From contig JAUSIP010000016.1 in NCBI GenBank assembly GCA_030648005.1, positions 1,110 to 65,109 of the forward strand: DNA of 64,000 nucleotides, in the 5' to 3' direction. Positions 2-28,710 of this stretch are shown piece by piece (the first letter of the stretch is position 1; each line of letters opens with the position of its first letter). Under the pieces are notes generated by a model. It was not told the origin of the DNA and did no database searches. It saw only the letters and a list, made by a program, of their open reading frames with translations. The DNA comes from a bacterium. GTDB taxonomy: Bacteria > Patescibacteriota > Minisyncoccia > Phycocordibacterales > UBA12445. Made by a program: the position numbers and the translations under genes.

Positions 2-3000
2 TCAAGTTCTGATTTCAGTATTTGTTGTGTAGCAACCACCTCTAGTAGTAATCCTTCTGTTGCTACTCAAAATACCGACATCAATGGTCCTGGGACAGGC
101 ACTGTCGGTATAAAAACCATTACAGCTGACACGCTAGCCAAAACTGTTACGTTAACTCTCGATACTGCGACAAGATCAGAAAATAGCGACACTCACGACT
201 TCTTACGATTTACGATCGCTGGACTCAAGAATCCTTCTATTCCAAAAGGGATAGATTCATCAGGGTACGTTCTTGATATCAAATCTAAGAATGCTTCAGG
301 AGTGTTACTTGAATCATTCAATGCTAATCCTGTTTATATTGGTGGTGGTACAGCAGGTGGAGGATCTGTGACAACAATCAGGGGTGTTGTTTCTGGGAAC
401 GGTAGTAATTTGAAAGATGTTCCTGTTCACCTCATGTCGCCTTCAACTGGCCCACAAGATGCTACGACCGATGCTAACGGCTTGTATCAGTTCACTAATA
501 TTCCTGTCGGCTCGCAGTTCTTGTCAAATAACTTTGGTGGCGGTAATGAATATATGGTGTTCATTGAGCCATTCATAACCGGTGTTAGTGATGAGAACGG
601 CGCCACAACAACCAACTTCTTCGGTAATACTATGCCGTCACCAGTTATCGCGACCTCTACCAGTCTTATAGGGAAAAACTTCTCTCTTACTCCTGCAAAC
701 ACAGCTTCAATCGCAGCTAATTTCACTGTAAGGTTAACAGCTGCAGCCAATACTTTCACCGCCGCAGAGACCCTCGATGTATTTGCTGGCGGCCCCGGCC
801 AGTTTGTCTCAAGAACTATTACTCCTGGAGCCTCTGCTTTAAGCAACTCAACTCTTACTACCGTGCCTATTCCTAAGGTGAACGGTTCATGGGGTGTTGG
901 TATTAGTCCGCCTATGCCTAAGGGCGGAGGGTTTAGTGGTCCGCCACCATCACCAAATTGGTCTATGCCTAAGCCGATAGAGGTTAAGGTTTCCGGATGT
1001 CCTTCAGCCTGCGTAACATCCGTTAGTGGCTTCGCTACGACCTCCAATATCTTCACGATTTCTACCGCCGACAAAACTATTTCTGGCGTGTTGAAAGATG
1101 GCAGTGGTAATGCTATCGCTAGTGCTATGGTGTTCGCCTTCTCTCCATCGACAGACGCCGGAGGAGGTACAGGCAACAGCACTCAAAGTTCTACAGTGGG
1201 CGCCTTCTCTATTAAGGTGGTTGCCGGAACATATGTGGTTGGTGCGTACTCTCCGGGTATTGGTGAATCGAAGAAGGTTACTGTTGTTGTTGATAGTTCA
1301 GGCAATGTTTTTGTCGACGGCAATGCGACTGCTTCTACTGGCTCGTCAGGAGCTAATCCTTTCACACTTAAAATGGTTAAGCCTGACTACTCTATTACAG
1401 GTCAGGTAACGGATGGTTCGAGCGCAGTCGGTAACGCCCCAGTCTTTGCTTACCGTACGGATGCCCCAGGTCATGCCGATGCCATGAGTGACTCTTCAAC
1501 AGGAAACTATACACTTTACGTCAGTAATGGTACGTGGAAAGTAAGCTCGTTCATTCCTGGGTTTGGTCCAATGGCTGAGCAGACGGTGACTGTTTCAGGT
1601 AGTAGTCAGTCAAATATAAATTTCGCGCCATCTTCCAGTCAGACCTTCAGTATCTTGTCCGGTAATATCTATGAAGATACAAACAGGAGTGATACCTTTA
1701 CGGCCGGAGAGGGTTTGTCCGGTGCGGTAATTCGAGTTTCTAATGGCACAAATGTAAATGAAGGTGTGTCGAGTACTGACGGCGCTTATACTGTTCGAGT
1801 GCCATCCGGTACAGGTTACAAGATCCAAGATATTTTCAGCCCGACTTATGGTAGGATTGCGCCGATTGGAGATAGTGGCGCGGCAATTGGTACGATTAAT
1901 TTAACTGCTTCAACTACTAAGAATATCCGTATTCCTATCCGAGGAACTGTCAGTATCATAATTAAGGATTCAAGTGGCAATCCGCTTACAGTACCTAAGG
2001 CGTTTATTGATCTCTTTGACAATACGACTGGTTTGGGTAATCACGTAGAGATTGATAACGGAACCACTACATCCATACTCATGGCATCAAGCACCTCAGC
2101 CTATACTGTGAAAGCTTATATACAGGGTATTCCTCCAGCTAATATTTCTGTTGCGTCTGATGATGCCGGAACAACAGTCACATCTGGTAGGATAACGATC
2201 AACCGCGCTACTGAATATATTAAGATTGTGGTTAACACCGCCTCGGCTGGTATGAGCACTATCTCCGGTACCGTATATAAAGATTCCGCTACATCCGGCA
2301 ACGAACTCGAAGGCGCATGGATTCAATTCGTCGATCAGACCAACGGTGTTCAGTTTGGTACCCAGTCTACATCTAGCGGAAGATACAGCATAAAGGCTTT
2401 AGATGGTACTTATCAGATACTTGTATCAAAGCCTCAATATGTTGCTACTCCAACAACTTTAGTTGTTTCAGGCGCAACAACACAGAACATGACCATGACG
2501 CAATCCTCCCTGACTATCTCCGGTACTGTGACATCTGGTGGTGTGGCCGCCGCTAGCTCATTCGTTCGTGGTGAGAAAGTGGGAGGAGGTCAAGCCATAA
2601 CACAAACAGATACAAATGGTACTTATACCTTGAACGTTACTCCCGGTACTTGGAGAGTCTTCGCAGCTGCTGATGGTTATGCAGAGGCCGGTTATGCTTC
2701 TAATCCGCTGACTGTTTCTAGTTCGCAATCCAGTATCAATGTCGCTCTTTCAACCGCTGCATCCGTTCAGTCAAAGTTGGCTACTTCCAACACCTTTAGT
2801 GATACTTCAGCAGGAACTTTCAGTGACACTACGGTTAACCTTAAGGTAAGTGTTGATGCAAATGCTTTTGGTTCTGCTGGGGCGAGTTCCTACTTCACCG
2901 CCAAGGAGACTACTAACTATCCAAATACAACTAGTGTTAATATTGTCGCTAATAAAGCTAAGGATATCAGTGCTTTCTCGGGAGGTAGCCAGGTTACAAA

Positions 3001-4144
3001 TCTTGCATCCGGCAAAACAGCAGATGTTGAATTGACTTATACTGTGGCAGAGTTAGCAACTTCAAATATAGACACCACAACAGAGGTCGGCAAATTAACA
3101 GTCGTATCTTATAGTTCCGATAAGGGAGATTGGGAAACATTAAGTACGGTCGCAACCTACAAAGATTCGGCTGGAGATGTCGTGGCTTCCCCGAATGCTA
3201 ATCTATCTAACGTATCATCAGTCAGCTTCATTGCCTCAGGTACTCACTTCTCAGCATACGCCCTATCTTCTTCTGAGGGTGTATCACCGCCCGATGCGCC
3301 GACAGGAGTGACTGCTACTCCGGCAACAAACGTAGCTAGGGTTACGTTAACGTGGACTGCCTCTCCTGATGCTGAAGGATATTATGTTTACAGAGACACA
3401 TCTGCTGGTGGCACCTTCCCGTTAATTGGAAATCCTGGAAACACAACAAGCTATACCGATAATGCTGTATCAATCTCAACTACCTACCTCTATAAGGTGT
3501 CGGCATTTAAATCTAGTGGCGCTTCGGAATCATCACCTTCATCTGCTGTGAGCGCCACAACTCTTTCTGGCGGAGGTGGCGGAGGCGGAGGAGGAGCTGC
3601 CGCGTCACCTTCACCTGCTCCAGCAGCATCTACACCAGTAGTTGCCACTCCGGCACCTGTTGCGAAGCCAGCTGTTAAAGAGACCATAGGTCTTGCAATC
3701 CCTGTAAGTACTAGTGGTACAAATAGGATAGTTATAGGACATAAATTCTTGAAGGTGCTTAAGATTGGCAATAAGGGCAATGAGGTCAAGGCCCTTCAGG
3801 ATATTCTTGAGGCACAGGGACATCTTAAGATGCCTAAGGGTGTAGCTAAGGGCACCTTCGGCTCATTAACCAAAGAGGCTATTAAGAAGTTCCAGAAAGC
3901 CAATAATATCGCCAAAGAGGGTCAGCCTGGCTTCGGTGATCTTGGACCTAAGACTAGAGCGAAGTTGAATGAGATGGCTGTGGTAGAAACACCAAAAACG
4001 GAGGCAGAACCGGCCAAAGCACCAGAAGCATCTAAGTCAGCATCTGTTATGACTTCGGAGGCTAAAACAGCATTGATCAGCACTCTCTTACAGCAAATTC
4101 AGGCTCTGCAAGAAGTGCTTAAGGGTCTGAAGGCCGGACAATAG
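2..4144 (+). CDS. Giant cell-surface protein, 5'-partial (frame open to window edge): tandem carboxypeptidase-regulatory-like/Ig-like beta-sandwich repeats, fibronectin type III domain, Gly9 linker, putative peptidoglycan-binding (PG_binding_1-like) domain, Ala/Pro/Lys-rich tail
   Basis: Frame 2 has no stop from base 2; the ORF track only starts at the first GTG (302). Repeats such as ISGTVYKDSATSG...GRYSIKALDGTYQILVSKPQY and ITGQVTDGSS...GNYTLYVSNGTWKVS. FN3-like PDAPTGVTATPATNVARVTLTWTASPDAEGYYVYRD. GGGGGGGGG run. C-terminal LKIGNKGNEVKALQDILEAQGHL...GTFGSLTKEAIKKFQKANNI matches the peptidoglycan-binding domain pattern. Confidence 0.6.
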   Translation, partial: SSSDFSICCVATTSSSNPSVATQNTDINGPGTGTVGIKTITADTLAKTVTLTLDTATRSENSDTHDFLRFTIAGLKNPSIPKGIDSSGYVLDIKSKNASGVLLESFNANPVYIGGGTAGGGSVTTIRGVVSGNGSNLKDVPVHLMSPSTGPQDATTDANGLYQFTNIPVGSQFLSNNFGGGNEYMVFIEPFITGVSDENGATTTNFFGNTMPSPVIATSTSLIGKNFSLTPANTASIAANFTVRLTAAANTFTAAETLDVFAGGPGQFVSRTITPGASALSNSTLTTVPIPKVNGSWGVGISPPMPKGGGFSGPPPSPNWSMPKPIEVKVSGCPSACVTSVSGFATTSNIFTISTADKTISGVLKDGSGNAIASAMVFAFSPSTDAGGGTGNSTQSSTVGAFSIKVVAGTYVVGAYSPGIGESKKVTVVVDSSGNVFVDGNATASTGSSGANPFTLKMVKPDYSITGQVTDGSSAVGNAPVFAYRTDAPGHADAMSDSSTGNYTLYVSNGTWKVSSFIPGFGPMAEQTVTVSGSSQSNINFAPSSSQTFSILSGNIYEDTNRSDTFTAGEGLSGAVIRVSNGTNVNEGVSSTDGAYTVRVPSGTGYKIQDIFSPTYGRIAPIGDSGAAIGTINLTASTTKNIRIPIRGTVSIIIKDSSGNPLTVPKAFIDLFDNTTGLGNHVEIDNGTTTSILMASSTSAYTVKAYIQGIPPANISVASDDAGTTVTSGRITINRATEYIKIVVNTASAGMSTISGTVYKDSATSGNELEGAWIQFVDQTNGVQFGTQSTSSGRYSIKALDGTYQILVSKPQYVATPTTLVVSGATTQNMTMTQSSLTISGTVTSGGVAAASSFVRGEKVGGGQAITQTDTNGTYTLNVTPGTWRVFAAADGYAEAGYASNPLTVSSSQSSINVALSTAASVQSKLATSNTFSDTSAGTFSDTTVNLKVSVDANAFGSAGASSYFTAKETTNYPNTTSVNIVANKAKDISAFSGGSQVTNLASGKTADVELTYTVAELATSNIDTTTEVGKLTVVSYSSDKGDWETLSTVATYKDSAGDVVASPNANLSNVSSVSFIASGTHFSAYALSSSEGVSPPDAPTGVTATPATNVARVTLTWTASPDAEGYYVYRDTSAGGTFPLIGNPGNTTSYTDNAVSISTTYLYKVSAFKSSGASESSPSSAVSATTLSGGGGGGGGGAAASPSPAPAASTPVVATPAPVAKPAVKETIGLAIPVSTSGTNRIVIGHKFLKVLKIGNKGNEVKALQDILEAQGHLKMPKGVAKGTFGSLTKEAIKKFQKANNIAKEGQPGFGDLGPKTRAKLNEMAVVETPKTEAEPAKAPEASKSASVMTSEAKTALISTLLQQIQALQEVLKGLKAGQ

Positions 4145-6810: not shown

Positions 6811-8076
6811 ATGAAGAGCAAGACAAGACAGATATATATGGACTATGCTTCTGCGACGCCTATTGATCCACGGGTGGCTAAGGTGATGCAGAAGTATGTG
6901 AGTGTAGAGTGTGGCAACCCGAGCTCGATACATTCTTTGGGTGTATCTGCCAAGCGGGCAGTGGAAGATTCAAGGAAGAAGATTGCAAATGTTTTGAATT
7001 GCCAGGCGAAAGAGATAATTTTTACTAGTGGAGGTACAGAGGGTGATAATTTGGCAGTGTTAGGCACAGTCAGGAGTATAAGGGAAAAGTATAAGTATAA
7101 GGGAGGACACATAATAACGACCGCGATAGAACATCAGGCGGTGTTGGCACCGTGCCGACAGCTTGAGAAAGAGGGTTTTGAAGTGACATATCTGCCGGTT
7201 TCTAAAGAGGGGATAGTTGATCCGGAGGATGTGAAGAAGGCTCTTCGGCCTGACACCTTTCTTGTTTCTGTGATGTATGCGAATAATGAGGTGGGGACTG
7301 TCCAGCCTATTTCTGAAGTCGCTAAGGTTATACGCCGCTTCAAGTCCGGAAGTAAGGAATTTAAATTCCCTGCTCTTCTGCCTGCCCATGCTAGGGCAGG
7401 CGAGCATAATAGTGAAAGCGCGATGAATTTTGAAACCCATTCTCCGCTTTTTCACGTTGATGCGTGTCAGGCGCCGGGAGCTTTATTACTTAATGTGGCC
7501 AAGTTAGGCGTTGACATGATGACTCTAAGCGGAGCTAAGATTTATGGTCCGAAAGGTGTTGGATGTTTGTATTTAAAAAGTGGAGTTGAAATTTCTCCTA
7601 TAATCTACGGCGGAGGACAGGAGAAGGGTTTAAGGTCTGGTACGGAAAATGTCGCCGGTATTGTCGGTATGGCCGAAGTCTTAGTGACAGCTGATTTTGA
7701 TAGAGAGAAAGAGGGGATTAGATTAAGTAAATTAAGAGACTATTTTGCTGAGAAAATTTTAGAAGTTGTTTCTGATTCCGAGATAAATGGAAGTATGGAC
7801 AAGAGACTACCAAATAATTTAAACGTTTATATTCCGGATATTGGTAATGAACAGCTAGTGATAGAGCTTGATGCTATAGGTGTGGCCGTCTCATCCGGAA
7901 GCGCTTGTAATACGAACGAAGAGGGAAGTTCGCATGTTATAGATGCACTCGGTTATGGCCATGAAAGAAGCAGGGGATCTATACGATTCAGTCTGGGTAA
8001 GAGCACAACAAAGAAAGATATTGATTTCGTTATAAAAAATCTACCGGGGATTTTGGGTCGCATCAGGTTTAACTAA
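6811..8076 (+). CDS. Cysteine desulfurase (class V aminotransferase, IscS/NifS-like)
   Basis: MDYASATPIDPRV...NPSSIHSLG...FTSGGTEGDN, PLP-lysine region SGAKIYGPKGVG, C-terminal SSGSAC active-site Cys. About 35-aa insertion (RRFKSGSKEFKFPALLPAHARAGEHNSESAMNFETHSPLF) before HVDACQAPG. True start may be the internal MDYAS Met. Confidence 0.8.
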   Translation: MKSKTRQIYMDYASATPIDPRVAKVMQKYVSVECGNPSSIHSLGVSAKRAVEDSRKKIANVLNCQAKEIIFTSGGTEGDNLAVLGTVRSIREKYKYKGGHIITTAIEHQAVLAPCRQLEKEGFEVTYLPVSKEGIVDPEDVKKALRPDTFLVSVMYANNEVGTVQPISEVAKVIRRFKSGSKEFKFPALLPAHARAGEHNSESAMNFETHSPLFHVDACQAPGALLLNVAKLGVDMMTLSGAKIYGPKGVGCLYLKSGVEISPIIYGGGQEKGLRSGTENVAGIVGMAEVLVTADFDREKEGIRLSKLRDYFAEKILEVVSDSEINGSMDKRLPNNLNVYIPDIGNEQLVIELDAIGVAVSSGSACNTNEEGSSHVIDALGYGHERSRGSIRFSLGKSTTKKDIDFVIKNLPGILGRIRFN

Positions 8077-8099: not shown

Positions 8100-8148
8100 A
8101 AGCTGTTTTATTCTGACGGCCGTCAGAATAAAACAGCTTTCGGATTTT
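8100..8148 (+). terminator. Rho-independent terminator (perfect 20-bp stem)
   Basis: aagctgttttattctgacgg / ccgtcagaataaaacagctt then tcggatttttg. Confidence 0.75.
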
Positions 8149-8183: not shown

Positions 8184-8202
8184 TTAGCACTCGAACCGAG
8201 TA

Positions 8203-8756
8203 CTACTTCTTCTGCTTGGACTTCTGTGCCGCCTTCTTCTTGGCTGCCTCCTGTGAGGACGACTGGATGGAGAGTCTCGAGGCCTTCGAATCGGCGTCGC
8301 GTTCCCGCTTGGCATCGGCTTCGCGCAGAGCGCGTGCTCGGCGTTCGGCCCGATTCCTTTCCTGCCGACCCGTCGTCACCTCCGGCTGGGCTTCGGTCTC
8401 GGACTTCAGCCCGGTGTAGGTCACGTGTCCCTTGAGAGACCGCAGGTCCCGCCAGAGGATGTTGAGACCACCACCGAAGCTGACCTTCGCGAGGTGACCC
8501 TGGATCTCCAGGACTCGGCCCTTGCCGTAGCTCGGGCGACCGACCGCGATGTCCTCCACCATGGGGTGGAAGACCGTGTCCGGCACCACCTCCAGGTTGG
8601 AGATGTGACACTTGACCACGCTCTTGCCGATACTGACCTCCGCGATGACCTTCTCGATGGACTCTCTAAGATCGACGGAATGGTGTTCACACGGCCCAGT
8701 ATGTTGCCGGGCATGCAGATGACGAGGTTGCCGGCACAGATGATGAGATTCTTCAT
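8203..8756 (-). pseudogene. GC-rich (over 60% GC, strong GC3 bias) foreign-composition gene with internal frameshift; product unrecognised (basic Lys/Ala/Arg-rich C-terminal tail)
   Basis: ATG at 8756 preceded by GGAGGA with 6-nt spacing. Frame A gives MKNLIICAGNLVICMPGNILGRVNTIPS, then frame B continues ...DLRESIEKVIAEVSIGKSVVKCHISNLEVVPDTVFHPMVEDIAVGRPSYGKGRVLEIQGHLAKVSFGGG... to the stop at 8203. Codon third positions are almost all G/C, unlike all neighbours. Confidence 0.5.
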
Positions 8757-8845
8757 GGGATGTCCTCCGTTGTACGATTCACGCCTGTTTGAGCAGTGTT
8801 AGCTCGCTCAGGTTTACTATTTCAATAGTTCAGAGTCTACTTTAT

Positions 8846-8874
8846 ATCATACACCAATGGGTCTATTTTGTCAA
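8846..8874 (-). promoter_or_regulatory. Sigma70-type promoter (TTGACA-17-TATGAT) for the GC-rich gene
   Basis: Minus-strand TTGACA at 8874-8869, 17-nt spacer, TATGAT at 8851-8846. Confidence 0.5.
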
Positions 8875-8913
8875 GTTTGGCCTTTTTAGTGGACTATTAT
8901 ATAATAATAAGCA

Positions 8914-9738
8914 ATGGAGGAGCTTAATAAAACCCAGATCGTCTTACTAACATTGTTCATAACATTTGTTACGTCTGTAACAACAGGTATTGTCACTGTG
9001 ACCCTTCTTCAGCAGGCTCCGCAAGGTGTTACTCAGACTATTAATAGGGTCGTTGAGCATACCATTGAGAAGATTACTCCTGTCACAACCAGAACGGAGA
9101 CAAGAGTTGTTGGACAGGAAGATGAGATCATAAAAACCGCATCATTAATTAAGCCTGCTATTGTGAGAATTACCTCTTCAGTTTCGACTGCTGTGGCATC
9201 TACTTCTGACGAGCAGCTTGCGGGGATTTTAGTAGCAACAAATTTAAGCGACAACGAGGTGGGTACCGGCTTCCTGGTCTCAAGCGATGGATTAGTCGCT
9301 ACGGCCTATTCAGTGATCCCTGACCACAATATAAGCTATGGAGTTTTTGTTGGAGACAAGAAGTATCAGGCCAATGTTATCATACACAATAAGAATGAAG
9401 GATTAGCTATACTTAAGATTGAACATGATAAAGCTACTAAGTTTGTCGCTCCGCAGTTTGCATCTAAACCTGTAACGTTGGGTCAGACCATCATAGTATT
9501 AGGTCGCGATCTTGATAGGTACACTGTGTCTGTCGGCCTGGTTGCTTCACTCAAGGAGGCAACTTTGTCGTCTTTGCCTATATTTAAAACCACTGTGAGG
9601 TCTGACAATACCAACATCGGCGGACCGCTACTTTCAAGTACAGGACAGGTTGTGGGTCTTAATCTTGAGAATGGTAATGCTTTGCCTATTGAATTAATCA
9701 AATCTGGTATGGCATCTACAACAAGGGCGACGAATTAA
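8914..9738 (+). CDS. Membrane-anchored trypsin-fold (HtrA/S1-like) protein with a degenerate catalytic triad (pseudoprotease)
   Basis: N-terminal TM helix. Aligns by eye to Do/HtrA protease blocks: TNNHVV is replaced by ATAYSVI, DIALI by GLAIL, GNSGGAL by TNIGGPL. The H/D/S positions are all substituted. Confidence 0.55.
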   Translation: MEELNKTQIVLLTLFITFVTSVTTGIVTVTLLQQAPQGVTQTINRVVEHTIEKITPVTTRTETRVVGQEDEIIKTASLIKPAIVRITSSVSTAVASTSDEQLAGILVATNLSDNEVGTGFLVSSDGLVATAYSVIPDHNISYGVFVGDKKYQANVIIHNKNEGLAILKIEHDKATKFVAPQFASKPVTLGQTIIVLGRDLDRYTVSVGLVASLKEATLSSLPIFKTTVRSDNTNIGGPLLSSTGQVVGLNLENGNALPIELIKSGMASTTRATN

Positions 9739-9740
9739 GT

Positions 9741-9768
9741 TTGACAAAATATCTAATTATCTTACAAT
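9741..9768 (+). promoter_or_regulatory. Sigma70-type promoter upstream of clpB
   Basis: TTGACA (9741-9746), 16-nt spacer, TACAAT (9763-9768). Confidence 0.5.
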
Positions 9769-9780
9769 CTTCATATTGCT

Positions 9781-12450
9781 ATGTTGCCATTCAATAACTT
9801 CACAACCAAAGCCAAAGAGGCCGTAAGGAAGGCTCATGAACTGGTTATAGAAAGAGGACAGAACCAGGTTGCGCCTATACATCTTCTTATTGCCTTGCTT
9901 ATCCAGGAAGATAGCCTCGTTCTGTCTATCCTTGATCGTTTGGAAGTAGATACTATTCTTCTGACTGATCACCTGATAGAGACTGTTGAGGGTGAAGCCG
10001 GTGGCAGTGTCTCAGCTCCAGCCTATCAGATATATCTGACGGCTGAGCTTGTTAAGGTGTTAGATATGGCGGCTAAGGCGGCGGCTTACTTGAAGGATGA
10101 ATTCATCTCTACTGAACATTTACTTGTGGCACTTCTTGATGTTCAGAGCCAGGCGCGCGATATACTCAATAAATTTAAAATTTCTAAAGATGAACTGCTT
10201 AAGATTTTGCAGGAGATCAAGAATGGCAAGATCACAGATGTAGTGCCAAAGAAGAAGGCGCATGCTCTGGAGCGGTACACTAGAAATCTTACAAGGCTTG
10301 CTCGTGAGGACAAGCTCGATCCTGTTATTGGACGAGATGAAGAGATCAGACGCGTGATGCAGATACTCTCAAGAAGGACCAAAAATAATCCTGTACTTAT
10401 AGGTGAGCCGGGTACTGGCAAGACCGCCGTGGCAGAAGGTTTGGCTAATAGAATTGCCAAAGGTGACGTACCGGATATTTTAAAGAATAAGGAGATAGTG
10501 TCTCTCGACATGGGGTCGCTGGTAGCTGGTACAAAGTACCGCGGAGAATTCGAAGAGAGGCTTAAGGGAATTTTAAAAGATGTAGAGAAGGCGAATGGCA
10601 ATATAATTCTATTCATAGATGAAATACACACCATCGTTGGAGCCGGTGCGGCTGAGGGCTCTATAGATGCGTCTAATATGTTGAAGCCTGCCCTTGCGCG
10701 CGGAGAGCTTCGTGCTATCGGAGCTACAACACTCAAGGAGTATCAGAAATATATTGAGAGAGACATGGCACTAGCCAGAAGATTCCAGCCGGTCTATGTA
10801 GGTGAGCCGAGTATTGAAGATGCAGTGGCGATACTTAGAGGTCTTCGGGATAGGTATGAGTTGCATCACGGTATTAAAATAAATGATGATGCGATCGTTG
10901 CGGCGGTCAACTTGAGCGCTAGATATATTGGAGACAGATTTTTGCCCGACAAAGCTATTGATCTTATAGATGAAGCTTCGGCTTCACTCCGGCTTTCGCT
11001 GGAAGACAAGCCAATGCTTCTTTTAGAGACCGACAAGAAGATTATGAGGCTTGAAGTTGAGAAGGAGGCGCTGAAGAAGGATGAGAGTGTAGATCAGAAG
11101 GCTGTTAAGACGCGCATAAAACAGATAGACAAAGAGGTCGGCGATCTACGAGAGACAACTTCCGAACTGGATAATCGCTGGAAAAATGAGAAGAAAAATA
11201 TTGTTGATACAAGGGCGATCAAGAAAGAACTTGAAGCTCTTCGGCTTGAGGCCGAAGCAGCGGAGATGCGCGCTGATTTAGGATTGGTGGCGGAGATCAG
11301 ATACGGCCGTATTCCACAGAAAGAGAGGGAGCTTAAGGAAACAGAGACAAAATTAAAGAAGCTTCAGAATAATAAGAGGATTTTGAAAGAAGAGGTAAAC
11401 GCAGAAGATATCGCCGGTGTAGTGTCTAAGTGGACAGGTATCCCAGTATTCCGAATGCTTGAGGAGGAAGTAGAGAAGTTGAAGAGAATGGAGGAAGAGC
11501 TTGCTAAGAGGGTTATCGGTCAGGCGGATGCAGTCAAGAAGGTTTCTGGTGCCATCAGACGCTCTCGTGCTGGTATTTCTGATCCAGACAGGCCAATAGG
11601 TTCATTCATGTTCTTGGGGCCCTCAGGTGTTGGCAAGACAGAACTTGCCAAGTCGCTGTCAGAGTTTATGTTTAACGATGAGAAGGCGATCATCCGCATA
11701 GATATGTCGGAATTCATGGAGAAGCACTCCGTGTCAAAGTTGATCGGCTCTCCGCCAGGCTATGTCGGTTATGAAGAGAGCGGTAAGCTGACAGAGATGG
11801 TTCGACATAGGCCGTACTCTATAATCCTCTTCGATGAGATCGAGAAGGCACATCCAGAGGTGTTTAACATACTCCTTCAGGTTCTTGATAATGGAAGGCT
11901 GACGGATTCTAAGGGACGAATCGTTAACTTCAAGAATACTGTTATAATTCTGACATCCAATATTGGATCCGAATATATCAGCAAGATGTCATCTATTGGC
12001 TTTGGTAACAATGCCATTAGCGACGGTTACGCTGAGACTAAAGATAAGATCCGAGATACTTTGAAAGACCACTTTAGGCCGGAGTTCTTGAATCGTCTGG
12101 ATGAGATCATAATCTTCGATACATTGAAGGACGAGACATTAAAGATGATTGTTGGTAACCAACTAAATATTGTAAGGAAGAGGCTGACAGACAAGGGGAT
12201 AGGTTTGGAGGTGAGTGATGAAGTTCTGATAAGCTTGGCGAAGGAGGGTTACAATCCAAATTACGGAGCGAGACCACTGAAGCGTTTGATTCAAACTAAA
12301 ATATTGAATCCAATATCAGAATTCTTGATCTCAAGCTCTGTAATATCCGGCTCTAGGATCTCCGTATATATGAAGAACGGCATTGTTGAAGTCGGTATTG
12401 TTTCCGGTGTGGCGAAAGCTAGACAGGCTAGGGTATCTAAGTTATCCTAG
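9781..12450 (+). CDS. clpB: ATP-dependent chaperone ClpB
   Basis: Clp N domain, two AAA+ modules ([15 protein letters not shown]; [14 protein letters not shown]), long middle coiled-coil typical of ClpB; 889 aa. Confidence 0.92.
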
Positions 12451-12479
12451 CTTAGAGTTTAGATTTGTTCGTTGATAAA

Positions 12480-12497
12480 TCCGCCGGCTGGCGGAGG
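12480..12497. repeat. GC palindrome tccgccGgctggcggagg (copy 1 of 2; the second copy is inside infA)
   Basis: 17 of 18 nt identical to 45400-45417; forms the hairpin ccgcc-ggct-ggcgg; its GGAGG part doubles as the SD for the GTG at 12508. Confidence 0.7.
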
Positions 12498-12507
12498 AGG
12501 TGCGTTT

Positions 12508-13380
12508 GTGAAAAAAGAAAAACCGAAGCCGTACTACGGGATCTCATGTCTCCATGACAGAAAGCAGATGCAGGATATCCTGACTTATGTTAAGGCCAAG
12601 AAGATTACCGGTAGGCGGATCATGGCCGGGACACATATGTCGTCTGCATCCTTCCGTGGGTTCGAAGTAGAGCATCCAAAAAGAACATTGAGGCTTGACG
12701 AAGTACGGAGCATCTACTCTTCGATTGAACGACCGAAGCAGCGGGGCCCAGATAGAGATTGGTTCGATGCGAATGTTTTCCGGGTCGTCCAATTCAACAG
12801 TGAAGGTCCGGCTGTGATAGACGCTGAGCTACTTCTTGTTAATCAGATGATACATATTCCAGATGGCGGACGGGAAGTCAACGTTATCGATCAGTTTGTT
12901 GAAGGTTTCCAGATCAACCACGCTCTGCCTAATCCGGATAAACTACGGTGGTTTAGAGACAAACAGATGTGGAGAAATATGCAGATCATCCTTCAGCTTG
13001 GTGAGTTGGCGATGGAAGAAACCGGTAATGATCCGGAGGGTCTGGCTGTGCTAGTGGAGAGCTATGGGGATGCCATCGACTATGTTCTTTGGGATGGGTC
13101 GGAAGATCATCAAGCAGTCTTCGATGCTGAATTTGCCAGGCCGTATCTTCGCGCGATTCGCGAGCATTGCCCAGATCTGGGCATTGCCGTATCAGGCAAT
13201 CTAGGACCAAACAGTATGCGTCTTGTAGATCCTCTTCGTGCAGAATTTCCAGATCTTTCCGTCGATGCAGAGAGTGAACTCCGGGATGAGAACGACTCAT
13301 TACTTATGGCTAAGGCCTTGAGCTATCTTGATGAATGCGCCAAGAGGTGGGAAAAGAAAATAAATATAGAGGATTGTTAA
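12508..13380 (+). CDS. Divergent TrpF-like (phosphoribosylanthranilate isomerase family) TIM-barrel protein, orphan
   Basis: C-terminal GIAVSGNLGPNSM...DLSVDAESELRDEN...LMAKALSYL parallels the TrpF block ILAGGLNPENV...GVDVSSGVE..G.KD..KI..F. GTG start at 12508 with GGAGGAGG 7 nt upstream is preferred over the TTG at 12472. GC about 52%. Confidence 0.35.
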   Translation: MKKEKPKPYYGISCLHDRKQMQDILTYVKAKKITGRRIMAGTHMSSASFRGFEVEHPKRTLRLDEVRSIYSSIERPKQRGPDRDWFDANVFRVVQFNSEGPAVIDAELLLVNQMIHIPDGGREVNVIDQFVEGFQINHALPNPDKLRWFRDKQMWRNMQIILQLGELAMEETGNDPEGLAVLVESYGDAIDYVLWDGSEDHQAVFDAEFARPYLRAIREHCPDLGIAVSGNLGPNSMRLVDPLRAEFPDLSVDAESELRDENDSLLMAKALSYLDECAKRWEKKINIEDC

Positions 13381-22600: not shown

Positions 22601-23461
22601 GTGGAGGTTAATCGTGAGGTTTTAAAATCTTCAGGGAGGATTAAGAGGAAGAAGGCGCTACAGGTTCTTTTTTGCGTTGCCTTTTTTCTGGCTGTAGCAT
22701 TTGTTGTATCTAATGGTGTTTTTCATCTGGATAAATTATATATAAAGAAAGTTTATATTGATGGTAACAAACAGGTGGAAGATAGCCGGATATTTGCCGT
22801 TGCCAAAGATATTTTATCTGGCAGATATTACGGAGTCTATCCGAAGAGTAATATCCTGATATATCCCAAAGAGCAGATAGCAGAGGTCTTACTCCGCAAT
22901 ATTCCCTGGCTGGCGAGTGTTGTGGTGTCCGGCAGTGCAAATGTAATCTCTATCGAGGTTATGGAGAGAGAGCCGAAATATTTATGGTGCGATGATCTTG
23001 CCAAGTCGGCCGTAGATCGCATTTGTTATTATCTGGATAAAGATGGGTTTGTTTTTGATAAGGCGCCCAACTTCACCGGGCATATCTACCCTGAATTTTA
23101 TGGAGGGAATAAAAGGGGTGGATACGTAGGCAGGTCTATTCTGCCAATCGAGACTTTACGTGAGATTTTGTCAATAAAAGATTCTATCGATAAGACATTG
23201 CAAGACAAGGGAGGTATTCTAGGTTATGTATATGGAGTTTACATTTATGAGAACGGCGATTATGATCTGTTACTTTCTGGTGGTAGAAAAGATTGGAAAA
23301 TTAATTTTGATCTTAATACCGATCCAGTAAAGAAGTTCCAGGTGGTTGTGGAGTCTAAGTTTTTCAAAAAAGAGCTTGATAATTCCACTAACCAGCTTGA
23401 TTATATCGATCTTAGATTTGGCAAAAAAGTTTTTTATAAATTCAACAAAGCGGGGGAATGA
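22601..23461 (+). CDS. FtsQ/DivIB-like cell-division protein (TM + POTRA)
   Basis: TM helix then IKKVYIDGNKQVEDSRIFAVAKD...IEVMEREPKYLW resembling the FtsQ POTRA region. Confidence 0.45.
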   Translation: MEVNREVLKSSGRIKRKKALQVLFCVAFFLAVAFVVSNGVFHLDKLYIKKVYIDGNKQVEDSRIFAVAKDILSGRYYGVYPKSNILIYPKEQIAEVLLRNIPWLASVVVSGSANVISIEVMEREPKYLWCDDLAKSAVDRICYYLDKDGFVFDKAPNFTGHIYPEFYGGNKRGGYVGRSILPIETLREILSIKDSIDKTLQDKGGILGYVYGVYIYENGDYDLLLSGGRKDWKINFDLNTDPVKKFQVVVESKFFKKELDNSTNQLDYIDLRFGKKVFYKFNKAGE

Positions 23462-25251
23462 GGCGCTATAAAATGTCAGATTATCTTCTTAGTTTAGCGG
23501 CTGTTCTTACTGTCGGAGCGTTCTTTGGCTTCATCTTGTTTAAAACTGGCTCGTTCACGATAGATATTGTTAGCTCAAAATTAAATCCGCTTCCAGCTTT
23601 AATTCCAACAGAAGAATCTGTTGTTGCAGAACATAAGAAATTTCCTGTTTTATCCCGCAAGGTCATCGTAGATAAGGATCTTCTAAACTACAAGTTGACG
23701 CTGAAGGCCAAAGCTTTCGTTGTTAAAGATCTTGATACTGGTGAAGGCGTACTACAACAGAATGGCGATACTAAATTTCCGATTGCCTCTGTTACCAAGC
23801 TAGTTACGGCTATGGTCGCCCTGGATAATATTCCACCAGAGGAGATCGTTAAGGTCTCGAAGTCGGCAATTAACACCTACGGTCGCCAGGGTGGTTTGTC
23901 TACAGGGGAGAAGTTTAGGGTGGTAGACCTCATCAACTGCCTTCTGCTTGAATCGAGCAACGATGCTGCCGAAGCGCTAGCGGAACATTTTGGCCGAGCC
24001 GAATTTCTCGCCCTTATGAACAAGAAAGTTGCTTCTTTGGGGATGAAAGATACAAGTTACAAGGATCCGAGTGGACTCTCGAGTTCTAATGTCTCAACAT
24101 CGGAGGATCTCTCTAGGCTTATTACTCACATAGAGCATAACCGATCTGATATTCTGGCAATAACCAAGAAGAAGTCGTATGAGGTTCCGGCAAGTAAGCT
24201 GTCTAAGAAACATGTCTGGTACAACATCAATCGATTGGTTAGAAACAATGATTCATATTATTTGGGAGGTAAGGATGGTTTTACTGGAGAGGCGTTAATG
24301 ACTTTCACCGGCGCCTTCTCTATACCCATAAACGAGTTTGATCATAAAAGATTTTCCATAGCAATCCTCCGAAGTAGCGACCGCAACAGTGACGTCGCTA
24401 AGATCATAGACCGTGTTAGCAAATCGCTTAAGTACGAAAATGGGTTGTCCGCTGTTGCTGCTGTTAATAAAAATAATAAAACCAAGATCGAACCTGATAA
24501 GAATTTGGCGCTCTTGTTTGCTGGCGATATCCGAATAGGCCAACTAGATCCGCCGCCTTTCGAATCAGTTCCATTCCTGAAAGATGCGGACATAACGTTC
24601 GGAAGCATAAAAGGCCCGATATCAGACTTGGGTTATGATATTGGCAACAAAGATTCTGTTCGTATGGCACCGGAAGTCATTCCAGCATTAGTTGAAGCAG
24701 GCTTCGATGCACTGTCAGTGGCGGGCGGACATATTGGCGATTGGGGAATCACTGCACTAGAAGACACACTAAAAAGACTGCGGACGCATGGGATCGTCTA
24801 TGTGGGTGGAGGTTTTAATGTAAATGACGCAAGGACGGTTAAAATAATAGAGAAGAATGGTATTAAGATTGGGTTTCTTGGGTTCTCCGATATGGGCCCG
24901 GAGTGGCTTGAAGATAAGAAAGATCTACCAACGATACTTTCGGCTAGCGATGCCGAGATTAAAGAGGTCATCAGTGATGCAGCACAGCAAGTCGACCATT
25001 TAATCGTATCGTTTGATTTTGGAAAGCAGGACAAGAGTGAGTCGTCTGAACGTCAACGTTTTCTGGCTCATAGGGCGGTAGATTTGGGAGCTCGCATTGT
25101 AATCGGCCACGATACACACCTCGTGCAAGATGTTGAGAGGTATAATGATGGCATGATTGCGTATGGACTTGGGGATCTGACATCAGGAAATTTCTTAGGA
25201 GTGATCTTAGATAAGAAGATGATTTTGGAAGTTAGGGAAGATGGGGTATAA
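23458..25251 (+). CDS. Fusion: D-alanyl-D-alanine carboxypeptidase (S11/PBP5-like) plus CapA/PGA-type metallophosphatase domain
   Basis: N-half: ASVTK (SxxK), SSND (SxN), KDGFTG (KTG variant). C-half: LLFAGDIRIGQLD, GHIGDWG, GARIVIGHDTHLVQ...YGLGDL typical of CapA. Confidence 0.65.
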   Translation: MRRYKMSDYLLSLAAVLTVGAFFGFILFKTGSFTIDIVSSKLNPLPALIPTEESVVAEHKKFPVLSRKVIVDKDLLNYKLTLKAKAFVVKDLDTGEGVLQQNGDTKFPIASVTKLVTAMVALDNIPPEEIVKVSKSAINTYGRQGGLSTGEKFRVVDLINCLLLESSNDAAEALAEHFGRAEFLALMNKKVASLGMKDTSYKDPSGLSSSNVSTSEDLSRLITHIEHNRSDILAITKKKSYEVPASKLSKKHVWYNINRLVRNNDSYYLGGKDGFTGEALMTFTGAFSIPINEFDHKRFSIAILRSSDRNSDVAKIIDRVSKSLKYENGLSAVAAVNKNNKTKIEPDKNLALLFAGDIRIGQLDPPPFESVPFLKDADITFGSIKGPISDLGYDIGNKDSVRMAPEVIPALVEAGFDALSVAGGHIGDWGITALEDTLKRLRTHGIVYVGGGFNVNDARTVKIIEKNGIKIGFLGFSDMGPEWLEDKKDLPTILSASDAEIKEVISDAAQQVDHLIVSFDFGKQDKSESSERQRFLAHRAVDLGARIVIGHDTHLVQDVERYNDGMIAYGLGDLTSGNFLGVILDKKMILEVREDGV

Positions 25252-27357: not shown

Positions 27358-28710
27358 ATGTTAAGAAATTCAAAAAAGCACTTAATTCTAATATTTAAAA
27401 TAGTTACGCCGATACTACTTTTTGGTGCTGGATTTTATGTTGGAGATAGGTATAGCGATAATTTCGGCATACAAAAACTTTCATCTATAAGCAATAAGGA
27501 GCCAGCTTTGCCGGTGACCGCTGACTTCGCGCCATTCTGGAAGACATGGAATTTGATTAATGAGAAGTTTGTTGATGGTCATGCCTCATCGACCGGCACC
27601 ACAACTGCGGCGTATAAAGCTGCTTACAAGCCAGTATCGGATCAGGAGAAGATCTACGGCGCTATCTCCGGGTTAGTTAAATCTCTTGGAGATCCATACA
27701 CCACCTTTCTGCCACCAAACGAAGCGGAGATGTTCCAGAACGATATCAATGGCAGTTTCCAGGGCGTTGGTATGGAGGTTGGATTAAAGAGTGATCTATT
27801 GACCGTCATTGCGCCACTTGAAGGCACTCCAGCCAAGAAAGCAGGAATAAGGTCGGGCGATAAGATTGTGAAGATAGATGACAAATCGACCGTCGGCATG
27901 TCAGTCGAGGAAGCAGTGAAGATGATCCGTGGGCCTAGAGGCACTTCCGTTACGCTATCAATCCTACGAGAGGGAGAGAAGGATATTTTAACTATTAAGG
28001 TTACCAGAGACACCATAACTATCCCGGTGATGGATATCGGCGAATCGAAGTCGGTCGGTAAGGATGGATCCTTAAGAAACGGTAAGGGTGGCACAGTGTC
28101 AGATGAGAATAATAATGGATTACGTAAAGACGGGATATTTGTAATGAGATTGTACAACTTTTCTGCACCGTCACCGGATTTCTTCCGTGAAGCACTGAAA
28201 AAATTTGAAGTTTCCGGTTCTAATAAATTAATTTTAGATCTAAGAGGCAACCCGGGTGGGTTCTTGGAAGCGGCAGTAGAGATCTCTAGCTGGTTCTTGC
28301 CGTCGGATAAGGTTGTTGTAAGAGAGGTCATAAACAAAGAGGGTGATGAGAAGATCCACAGAAGCAAGGGGTACGATATATTTAACGAGAATCTGAAGAT
28401 GGCAATTTTGATTGATAAAGGTAGTGCCTCAGCATCTGAGATCTTAGCCGGAGCACTTTCAGAACACGGAGTGGCTAAGCTTATCGGTGAACAAAGTTTC
28501 GGTAAGGGTTCTGTTCAGGAATTAATATCGGTGACATCAGACACTTATGTTAAGATGACCATCGCCAAGTGGCTGACTCCAGGTGGCAAGTCTATCTCAC
28601 TTTCAGGCTTGACTCCGGACATCATTGTGCCTATAACTAAGGAGGATGTTCTGAAGGGCAATGATCCACAGATGGATCGAGCAGCCAAACTTTTACTAGA
28701 AGGGAAATAA
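27358..28710 (+). CDS. ctp: Carboxyl-terminal processing protease (S41) with PDZ domain
   Basis: PDZ (GIRSGDKIVKIDD), S41 core GNPGGFLEAAVEIS...GSASASEILAGAL. Confidence 0.85.
   Translation: MLRNSKKHLILIFKIVTPILLFGAGFYVGDRYSDNFGIQKLSSISNKEPALPVTADFAPFWKTWNLINEKFVDGHASSTGTTTAAYKAAYKPVSDQEKIYGAISGLVKSLGDPYTTFLPPNEAEMFQNDINGSFQGVGMEVGLKSDLLTVIAPLEGTPAKKAGIRSGDKIVKIDDKSTVGMSVEEAVKMIRGPRGTSVTLSILREGEKDILTIKVTRDTITIPVMDIGESKSVGKDGSLRNGKGGTVSDENNNGLRKDGIFVMRLYNFSAPSPDFFREALKKFEVSGSNKLILDLRGNPGGFLEAAVEISSWFLPSDKVVVREVINKEGDEKIHRSKGYDIFNENLKMAILIDKGSASASEILAGALSEHGVAKLIGEQSFGKGSVQELISVTSDTYVKMTIAKWLTPGGKSISLSGLTPDIIVPITKEDVLKGNDPQMDRAAKLLLEGK

Follow-up and report, generated by a model that had tools for sequence, protein, structure and literature searches.

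The HtrA, DegP and DegS proteases (MEROPS family S1C), and especially the membrane-anchored HtrA and HtrB of Bacillus subtilis and the HtrA of streptococci, share their fold and an N-terminal anchor with the protein described here, the 274-aa product of a gene in a 64,000-nt stretch of patescibacterial DNA (GTDB Phycocordibacterales, UBA12445; GenBank assembly GCA_030648005.1, contig JAUSIP010000016.1, positions 1,110 to 65,109), referred to below as the window. The order of motifs is common to both as well: GxGF, a TN.HV strand, a D-I-A-hhK strand, GIVS, QTD and GNSGGPL. Unlike the S1C HtrAs, the 274-aa protein has Ser, Gly and Ile at the positions of the catalytic triad, no PDZ domain, short LA and L3 loops, and a hyper-conserved transmembrane (TM)/juxtamembrane module. 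We refer to it as a pseudo-HtrA, and to family members with and without the full His/Asp/Ser triad (H/D/S) as live and dead, respectively.

A natural precedent is MamO, whose trypsin fold is HtrA-like but has no working active site and is kept for non-catalytic roles; it arose by duplication or acquisition beside the active MamE, and has a TauE-like transporter domain and surface di-histidine metal binding (PMC4794232). With an HtrA-like domain incapable of catalysis, it shows that the HtrA scaffold can be repurposed in bacteria. Unlike MamO, the pseudo-HtrA has one TM helix and no TauE domain, and here the ortholog itself is dead. The NCBIfam model for MamO gives 40.6 bits against a cutoff of 800, and in phmmer searches ordinary HtrAs score higher than MamO does (39 vs 26.8 bits). 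A MamO-like metal site was considered and rejected, since conservation of H138, H158 and H171 is lacking even among the closest orthologs.

Engineered HtrAs provide a second comparison. Proteolytically inactive B. subtilis HtrA (S260A) gave better fitness and secretion yield, read by the authors as chaperone-like activity, and constitutive wild-type HtrA was counter-selected (PMC10715036). DegP S210A and H. pylori HtrA (PMC6892219) belong with it as catalytically dead proteins that still benefit the cell, an effect read as chaperone-like at the membrane-wall interface. These are point mutants that keep the remaining His and Asp, the PDZ domains and the loops, whereas the pseudo-HtrA is natural, ancient and far more degraded.

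A third is MarP (Rv3671c), which like the 274-aa protein places a PDZ-less trypsin-like domain on the membrane; MarP chains in the PDB rank with the top sequence matches (E ~2-4e-8). MarP itself crosses the membrane with four TM helices, and its triad is active. In contrast, the 274-aa protein has one TM helix and a dead triad, and its score with the MarP model NF033740 is 26.3 bits against a cutoff of 250. In the literature on HtrA, DegP, pseudoenzymes and serine proteases of Patescibacteria, the candidate phyla radiation (CPR) and Parcubacteria, we found no description of this family.

An HtrA fold with a substituted triad

The initial annotation of this gene, made from the sequence alone, had proposed a membrane-anchored trypsin fold of the HtrA/DegP type in which all three catalytic residues are replaced, and the three parts of that proposal hold up. 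The anchor is a single hydrophobic segment (residues 9-27; 19-residue Kyte-Doolittle mean 2.24, with no other segment above 1.6), modelled by AlphaFold2 (AF2) as a helix spanning residues 6-34. The fold is recognised by Pfam Trypsin_2 (PF13365) over residues 117-249 (E=4.5e-17; 63.6 bits against a cutoff of 27.6), with the whole model covered (1-144 of 144) and the triad columns substituted. The AF2 model, built on an alignment of 117 sequences, is a confident HtrA-type fold (mean predicted local distance difference test, pLDDT, 86; predicted template modelling score, pTM, 0.70) with a low-confidence linker at residues 55-67. Foldseek matches it to the protease domains of HtrA1, MucD, DegS, H. 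pylori HtrA and Deg5 in the PDB (E ~1e-14; target-normalised TM-score 0.75-0.82). In phmmer searches of PDB sequences the HtrA of T. maritima (1l1j) comes first (E=6e-9), followed by DegP-like proteins, MarP, HtrA1, HtrA2, Deg1 and DegS. No other Pfam domain was found in the protein, nor any PDZ match even at E<=10; the chain stops 16 residues past the protease domain.

The blocks on which the annotation had relied (GTGFLVSSDGLVATA, NEGLAILKIE and NTNIGGPLLSSTGQVVGLN) are all present in the protein, and the alignments to PDB sequences and, with MAFFT, to live orthologs agree on the residues at the three catalytic columns. At the His column, the TNYHVV or TNKHVV of HtrAs stands opposite T130-A-Y-S133-V-I; at the Asp column, LDIAVIK or QDIAILK stands opposite E162-G163-LAILK; and at the Ser column, GNSGGPLL stands opposite T233-N-I235-GGPLL. 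The substitutions are shared by relatives: 15 close orthologs have S-G-I, and the remainder are minor variants of it. The annotation had named another His/Asp/Ser triad in register as the observation that would overturn it. None was found, and no histidine of the domain is conserved: all four in the protein (H49, H138, H158 and H171) vary among the 22 closest orthologs.

With these residues, the 274-aa protein cannot have a Ser-His-Asp mechanism. It shares the fold and common descent of S1C, and it lacks the triad, the PDZ domain and a score above any curated threshold: the NCBIfam models for MamE, MamO, HtrA, DegS and MarP all fall far under cutoff (score/cutoff in bits for the HtrA/DegP-type models: TIGR02037, degP_htrA_DO, 46.6/416; NF047968, 39.1/470; NF041521, 36/450; TIGR02038, 30.9/423). 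Because triad, PDZ domain and curated thresholds all fail, the proper label is a non-peptidase homologue of the HtrA/S1C lineage rather than a serine protease. A DegS-type sensor is matched in the N-terminal anchor, and not in the PDZ domain, the triad, the length of the L3 sensor loop (15 residues vs 19-24 in live orthologs) or the score with TIGR02038.

Distribution and orthology to live HtrA

A protein database contains 660 relatives, of which the best 120 hits were aligned with MAFFT. Sources of named relatives include Candidatus Vogelbacteria, Nomurabacteria, Lloydbacteria, Paceibacterota, Parcubacteria and Patescibacteria. Only 7 of these 120 have H/D/S, all of them proteins of 411-435 aa with PDZ domains; the triad is absent from each of the PDZ-less proteins of 250-330 aa, in which the residues at the three columns are very diverse. 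A scan of species-representative genomes gave at least 560 relatives, and 80 of the loci (L001-L080) were analysed further. These 80 loci and the window gene show 65 different combinations of residues at the triad positions, and the H/D/S proteins, present in 5 of the 80, are again the long, PDZ-bearing ones. A set of 105 independent full-length cluster representatives has no full triad at all, with Trypsin_2 matched in 99. When the three partly overlapping sets are pooled, none of the roughly 290 PDZ-less members has a full triad, as compared with 9 of 10 long members. Single triad residues do persist in various sublineages of the PDZ-less proteins: His in 9 of these proteins, Asp in 35, Ser in 67.

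The genes around these proteins have a recurrent order over the 80 loci: IF2 (-), DUF4446 (-), nifS (+), the pseudo-HtrA ortholog (+) and clpB (+). In 76 loci the sequence is long enough to show what follows the ortholog, and in 74 of these the very next gene is clpB, on the same strand (median gap ~72 nt, with three overlaps). The ortholog's open reading frame (ORF) is intact at full length in 78 of the 80, the two exceptions being truncated where their contigs stop. Of the loci with live proteins, the four that are long enough to tell (L010, L035, L050 and L052; 390-422 aa, with PDZ domains) also have the gene immediately before clpB, and its product starts with the N-terminal module found in the dead ones. 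Because they share both the slot before clpB and this module with live HtrAs, the dead proteins are positional orthologs of membrane-anchored HtrA, with no separate paralog family involved. In a neighbour-joining tree of ClpB (midpoint root), the four live-HtrA genomes group together, and their sister clade contains all 56 dead ones (55 loci and the window). An active partner of the kind that MamE is to MamO does not appear nearby: neither the 64-kb window nor the flanks of the dead-lineage loci (~0.9 Mb in all) contain a second S1C gene. The sole extra S1 hit in the flanks, at 6867-7937 of L052, is a separate live S1 protease in the live lineage.

It is very probable, then, that a Parcubacteria/Paceibacteria HtrA ortholog has become a pseudoenzyme. 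The result is a natural, ancient, ortholog-level HtrA pseudoprotease found throughout a large clade of Parcubacteria/Paceibacteria; it is akin to known HtrA-type pseudoproteases and not categorically new, but it is well defined. Database labels for relatives currently read "serine protease", "S1C family serine protease" or "trypsin-like peptidase"; the database protein identical in sequence to the window's pseudo-HtrA (P0001, from an NCBI metagenome-assembled genome) is one of those named "serine protease". Hundreds to thousands of CPR proteins are thus mislabelled as proteases despite having no Ser-His-Asp mechanism, and reconstructions of Parcubacteria metabolism or envelopes that count dead orthologs as HtrA activity are wrong.

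Some PDZ-less members keep one or two triad residues: P0028, P0051, P0116, P0136 and P0203 (HD-x), P0129 (H-N-S), P0175 and P0234 (x-D-S), as well as those of loci L020 and L033. By their sequences these look like intermediate stages of decay, and they would be the best candidates for residual activity. In the live lineages, the upstream neighbours of L052 (6057-7937) and L035 (6072-6698) are unlike those of the dead clade; both include an ORF resembling Fe/Mn superoxide dismutase (judged by eye from the translation), and in L052 the second, unrelated S1 protease (356 aa, intact triad) stands directly before the live HtrA.

Relaxed selection and loss of regulatory parts

The protease domain is constrained, although less so than its neighbours. 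For pairs with unsaturated synonymous divergence (dS), the Nei-Gojobori ratio of nonsynonymous to synonymous divergence (dN/dS) over residues 114-258 is 0.04-0.25; in the same pairs the N-terminal module gives 0-0.08 and ClpB 0.01-0.06. Neutral decay is rejected by these values. At 65-70% ClpB identity, the protease domains of dead orthologs are 26% identical to each other (n=661) and those of live orthologs 61% (n=4); the corresponding values for the N-terminal module are 0.68 and 0.59. The dead domain is under selection that is purifying yet relaxed.

What has been kept is also informative. Every column conserved at 60% or more in the dead set (G119, F120, G126, Y142, G190, Q191, G197, G208, S211, N234, G236, G237, P238, G244 and G248) is conserved in the live set too, and these shared columns are determinants of the fold, with no sign in the alignments of a new or gain-of-function motif. 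The L1 loop has kept its length, with a median of 8 residues in dead orthologs and 8 in live ones. Other parts have shrunk: the LA loop (median of 16 residues in dead orthologs vs 49-54 in live), the L3 sensor loop (median 15 vs 19-24), the LD loop (median 10 vs 12), and everything after G248, PDZ domain included (median ~25, and 26 in the window protein, vs 127-142). By this comparison, the regulatory apparatus (PDZ domain, LA and L3 loops) has been dismantled in the dead orthologs.

The N-terminal module

The most conserved part of the protein is the N-terminal module, above the protease fold. Compared pair by pair, the 80 positional orthologs are on average 70% identical in the module and 30% in the protease domain. 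The consensus of its first 56 residues is MEELNKTQIVLLTLLVSFVTSIATGIVTVTLxDQAPPxVTQTINRVVERTIEKVVP, in which L4, Q8, G25 and P36 are invariant and some 25 further positions are at least 90% conserved; juxtamembrane positions T40, T42, N44, V47, E48, T50 and E52 reach at least 93%. Both helices of the module are conserved on all faces, which is unusual for a lipid-facing anchor. Live orthologs have the module as well, at 55-68% identity to the dead ones.

Constraint on the module acts at the level of protein, because third codon positions vary: conservation at codon positions 1, 2 and 3 is 0.80, 0.91 and 0.44. Constraint on RNA or DNA as the cause of the conservation was considered and rejected, third positions being as variable here as elsewhere (0.44).

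No Pfam family matches the 56-residue module, and we know of no report of a hyper-conserved TM/juxtamembrane module in other HtrAs. An exhaustive phmmer search with the 59-residue N-terminus against 1.84 billion representatives found 1094 proteins at E<=1e-3, of which 777 reach E<=1e-10. In the 150 top-scoring hits of the list, the module is at the N-terminus or within ~65 residues of it, in proteins of ~250-350 aa or fragments. A word-indexed protein search with the same 59 residues returned three short fragments only and was uninformative.

The initial annotation had missed the clade-wide state of HtrA, the loss of the PDZ domain and regulatory loops, the peak of constraint at the N-terminus and the adjacency of clpB. 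The data are consistent with the role that it tentatively suggested, in binding or regulation at the surface of the cell.

Possible roles for a dead HtrA

Taken as a whole, the reading that we favour, with confidence only slightly better than even, is that of an ortholog-level HtrA pseudoenzyme kept for a non-catalytic role. The ancestor of the clade would have lost the PDZ domain once, at its base, and the triad would then have decayed repeatedly and independently in sublineages; independent decay is suggested because each triad residue survives somewhere and all three never survive together. The dead domain would face outward from the membrane, given that HtrAs are extracytoplasmic and that live orthologs share the N-terminal module. 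It would no longer cleave, and what remains would be the half of HtrA function that needs no proteolysis: a folded platform, docked at the membrane, that holds or scaffolds exported polypeptides. The TM/juxtamembrane module may fix the protein in a homo-oligomer and/or to a conserved membrane partner, for example the secretion machinery, and the adjacency of clpB may place both genes in the same proteostasis set. The holdase or scaffold mechanism, as distinct from the reading as a whole, is offered tentatively, as a possible role that we would not yet expect to prove right.

A more specific version can be imagined, and seems to us improbable: the only HtrA ortholog of the clade would be an obligate non-catalytic membrane protein, with the N-terminal module as an unrecognised interaction module that docks the ectodomain to the Sec/YidC translocon or to signal peptidase, making the protein a structural or holdase subunit of a minimal CPR secretion apparatus tied to ClpB. 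The invariant Ala35-Pro36 after the TM helix resembles an uncleavable signal-peptidase site.

Several points weigh against a retained non-catalytic role of this kind, or against parts of it. The former substrate cleft and the surface are hypervariable, with ~26% identity among dead orthologs, unlike a conserved peptide-binding site. Chaperone activity of the DegP type relies on cages that depend on PDZ domains, which the dead proteins lack. Lysine and arginine residues are balanced across the TM helix (~1.2 on each side), leaving the positive-inside rule uninformative as to orientation. CIRCE, CtsR-box and HAIR operators are absent near the gene and clpB in the window, and none recurs in the 79 and 74 upstream regions scanned for the gene and clpB, respectively. 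Because no shared heat-shock operators were found, the link to clpB is one of synteny alone; clpB has a promoter-like site of its own, and gene order in CPR bacteria may simply be slow to change. As to the data, the live-live comparison draws on 4-6 pairs, the ClpB tree was made by neighbour-joining with a midpoint root, and the family sets were retrieved or ranked partly via the N-terminal module, which inflates its apparent conservation.

The main rival, unlikely but deserving serious consideration, makes the N-terminal module itself the part that does the work, for instance by serving some membrane complex as subunit or regulator, and reduces the dead fold to an ectodomain, spacer or oligomerisation plug without a client. 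This would account for a module that is the most constrained part of the protein by identity, by dN/dS and on all helix faces, and that is equally conserved in dead and live orthologs, as well as for a protease domain in which conservation is limited to fold-determining glycines, prolines and core residues. A domain of 200 residues is, however, intact in more than 1000 cluster representatives from small, deletion-prone genomes, with the dN/dS values of 0.04-0.25 given above, and the NxGGPL loop L1 has been kept together with its length, which a mere spacer would not obviously need.

The variability of the cleft could also be given a positive meaning. If the dead domain were a fast-evolving surface-recognition domain under diversifying selection, serving episymbiotic attachment to a host or acting as a phage target or decoy, its presumed exposure at the surface, its divergence at two to three times the rate of live orthologs at equal ClpB distance, and the hypervariability of the cleft positions and LA loop would all be expected. 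We consider this distinctly less likely still: dN/dS across the whole domain is well below 1, lineage-specific insertions or repeats of the adhesin type were not seen, and the gene sits in strict housekeeping synteny rather than in a variable region.

Continued hydrolysis by non-canonical catalytic residues is very improbable. The backbone of the oxyanion loop (NxGGPL) is kept, and the close clade conserves E115, K149, K176, K225, D231 and S212; but the nucleophile position is Ile, the Asp position is Gly, no His is conserved, and 65 combinations at the triad positions are incompatible with a conserved alternative mechanism. Alternative triads and a Ser-Lys dyad were rejected for want of a conserved His, S212 being the structural serine of GIVS that live HtrAs also have. 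That the gene is a functionless, decaying relic, a pseudogene in progress, is scarcely credible: relaxed constraint and the loss of catalytic and regulatory elements would suit it, but not the 78 intact ORFs in 80 loci, dN/dS far below 1, a confident AF2 fold and retention across a deep clade.

The interest of the family lies in the ortholog itself having been inactivated, apparently without an active paralog nearby, while a fold of ~200 residues stayed under purifying selection for a long time. It constitutes a clean natural experiment on the long-debated protease-independent function of HtrA, and its TM/juxtamembrane module offers a concrete handle on membrane partners in bacteria whose envelope biology is barely understood.

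Gene features and genomic context

The features of the gene, its product and the clpB junction are collected in Table 1. The ATG start is backed by conservation of M1-E2-x-L4 across the family. An independent Logan contig (SRR13727527) matches window positions 8656-11403 exactly. The segment comprising residues 68-88, which leads into the HtrA domain, is conserved in live as well as dead orthologs.

Table 1. Features of the pseudo-HtrA gene, its product and the adjoining clpB gene (positions in the window)
Feature	Position	Strand	Basis or remarks
Promoter-like site TTGGCC-17-TATAAT, ending 8 nt before the ATG	8877..8905	+	Consensus scan; pattern match only
Pseudo-HtrA, complete coding sequence	8914..9738	+	274 aa + stop; ATG start
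Single TM helix, residues 9-31	8938..9006	+	19-residue Kyte-Doolittle mean 2.24; AF2 helix 6-34; T/S/G-rich positions >=90% conserved on each helical face
Q34-A35-P36 motif and juxtamembrane helix VTQTINRVVEhTIEKitP, residues 32-56	9007..9081	+	AF2 helix 37-54
Flexible linker, residues 57-67	9082..9114	+	pLDDT <65; <50 at residues 58-62
N-terminal helix and first strand of HtrA domain (EDEII...kPaIVRI), residues 68-88	9115..9177	+	AF2 helix 68-82, strand 83-88
LA loop remnant, disordered and variable, residues 89-113	9178..9252	+	pLDDT 51-56
Two beta-barrels of dead trypsin/HtrA fold, residues 114-258	9253..9687	+	Pfam; pLDDT 86-97; Foldseek
Ser133 at catalytic His position	9310..9312 (TCA)	+	PDB HMMER and MAFFT alignments; codon check
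Gly163 at catalytic Asp position	9400..9402 (GGA)	+	PDB HMMER and MAFFT alignments; codon check
Thr227 for Asp of HtrA QTD motif	9592..9594	+	Thr in 74% of dead orthologs, Asp in all live
Ile235 at nucleophile Ser position, in otherwise kept N-x-GGPL L1/oxyanion loop	9616..9618 (ATC)	+	Alignments; codon check
C-terminal helix and protein end, no PDZ after, residues 259-274	9688..9735	+	AF2 helix 259-273
Near-consensus promoter-like site TTGACA-16-TACAAT, in 42-nt gap before clpB	9741..9768	+	Pattern match only
clpB, 889 aa, conserved downstream neighbour	9781..12450	+	Pfam AAA_2, ClpB_D2-small, Clp_N

The neighbours of the gene encode IF-2, a DUF4446 protein, a class-V aminotransferase of the cysteine desulfurase type, ClpB, a 302-aa ORF, UvrC, ParB and RelA/SpoT. 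No terminator was found in the 42-nt gap between the pseudo-HtrA gene and clpB. The -10-like box of clpB ends 12 nt before its start codon, and neither gene has a Shine-Dalgarno sequence between box and start (8900-8913 and 9763-9780). In ~30 of 79 loci the start codon of the ortholog is preceded, at a distance of 6-14 nt, by a TAnAAT box, and the only k-mers enriched upstream of the gene or of clpB are such -10-like boxes. This arrangement suggests that the pseudo-HtrA mRNA may be leaderless or have a very short leader, and that such mRNAs may be common in the clade.

Between the nifS-like gene and the pseudo-HtrA gene lies a GC-rich island (8190-8760; 61-66% GC vs ~44% for the genome). On its minus strand are ORFs of 111 aa (8756->8421) and 138 aa (8619->8203, with the frame open back to ~8700), which look like one gene split by a frameshift; around it are a terminator (8185->8161), a promoter-like site (8874->8846) and, at 8100-8139, a bidirectional hairpin with a perfect stem of 18 bp. 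No Pfam model matches the island, and it has no counterpart among the 80 orthologous loci, in phages or in plasmids; contig SRR13727527 ends inside it. It may be foreign DNA inserted recently, a segment that varies between strains, or a join made in assembly.

Other genes in the window

Elsewhere in the window, 27358-28710 (+) encodes a C-terminal-processing peptidase of family S41 (450 aa) that contains a PDZ domain and a region resembling CtpB-N; with the HtrA ortholog dead, it is a candidate, from its domain content, for the remaining envelope proteolysis. The 597-aa product of 23458-25251 (+) has an unusual combination of domains, an S11 D-Ala-D-Ala carboxypeptidase fused to PGA_cap (capsule synthesis, CapA-like). 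The 1280-aa product of 302-4144 (+), probably a large protein of the cell surface, combines four CarboxypepD_reg repeats and fn3/SpaA-like Ig folds with a PG_binding_1 domain at its C-terminus; L008 has a homolog (60% identity) at the same relative position.

Two of the immediate neighbours have features of their own. The 302-aa ORF directly after clpB (12472-13380, +) has no Pfam match and no tblastn counterpart in the 80 syntenic loci, and is either lineage-specific or very fast-evolving. In the cysteine-desulfurase-like gene (6811-8076, +), Aminotran_5 is matched in two separate stretches, which would imply an insertion of ~40 residues in the middle of the fold, at residues ~177-215 (...FKFPALLPAHARAGEHNSESAMNFETHSP...).

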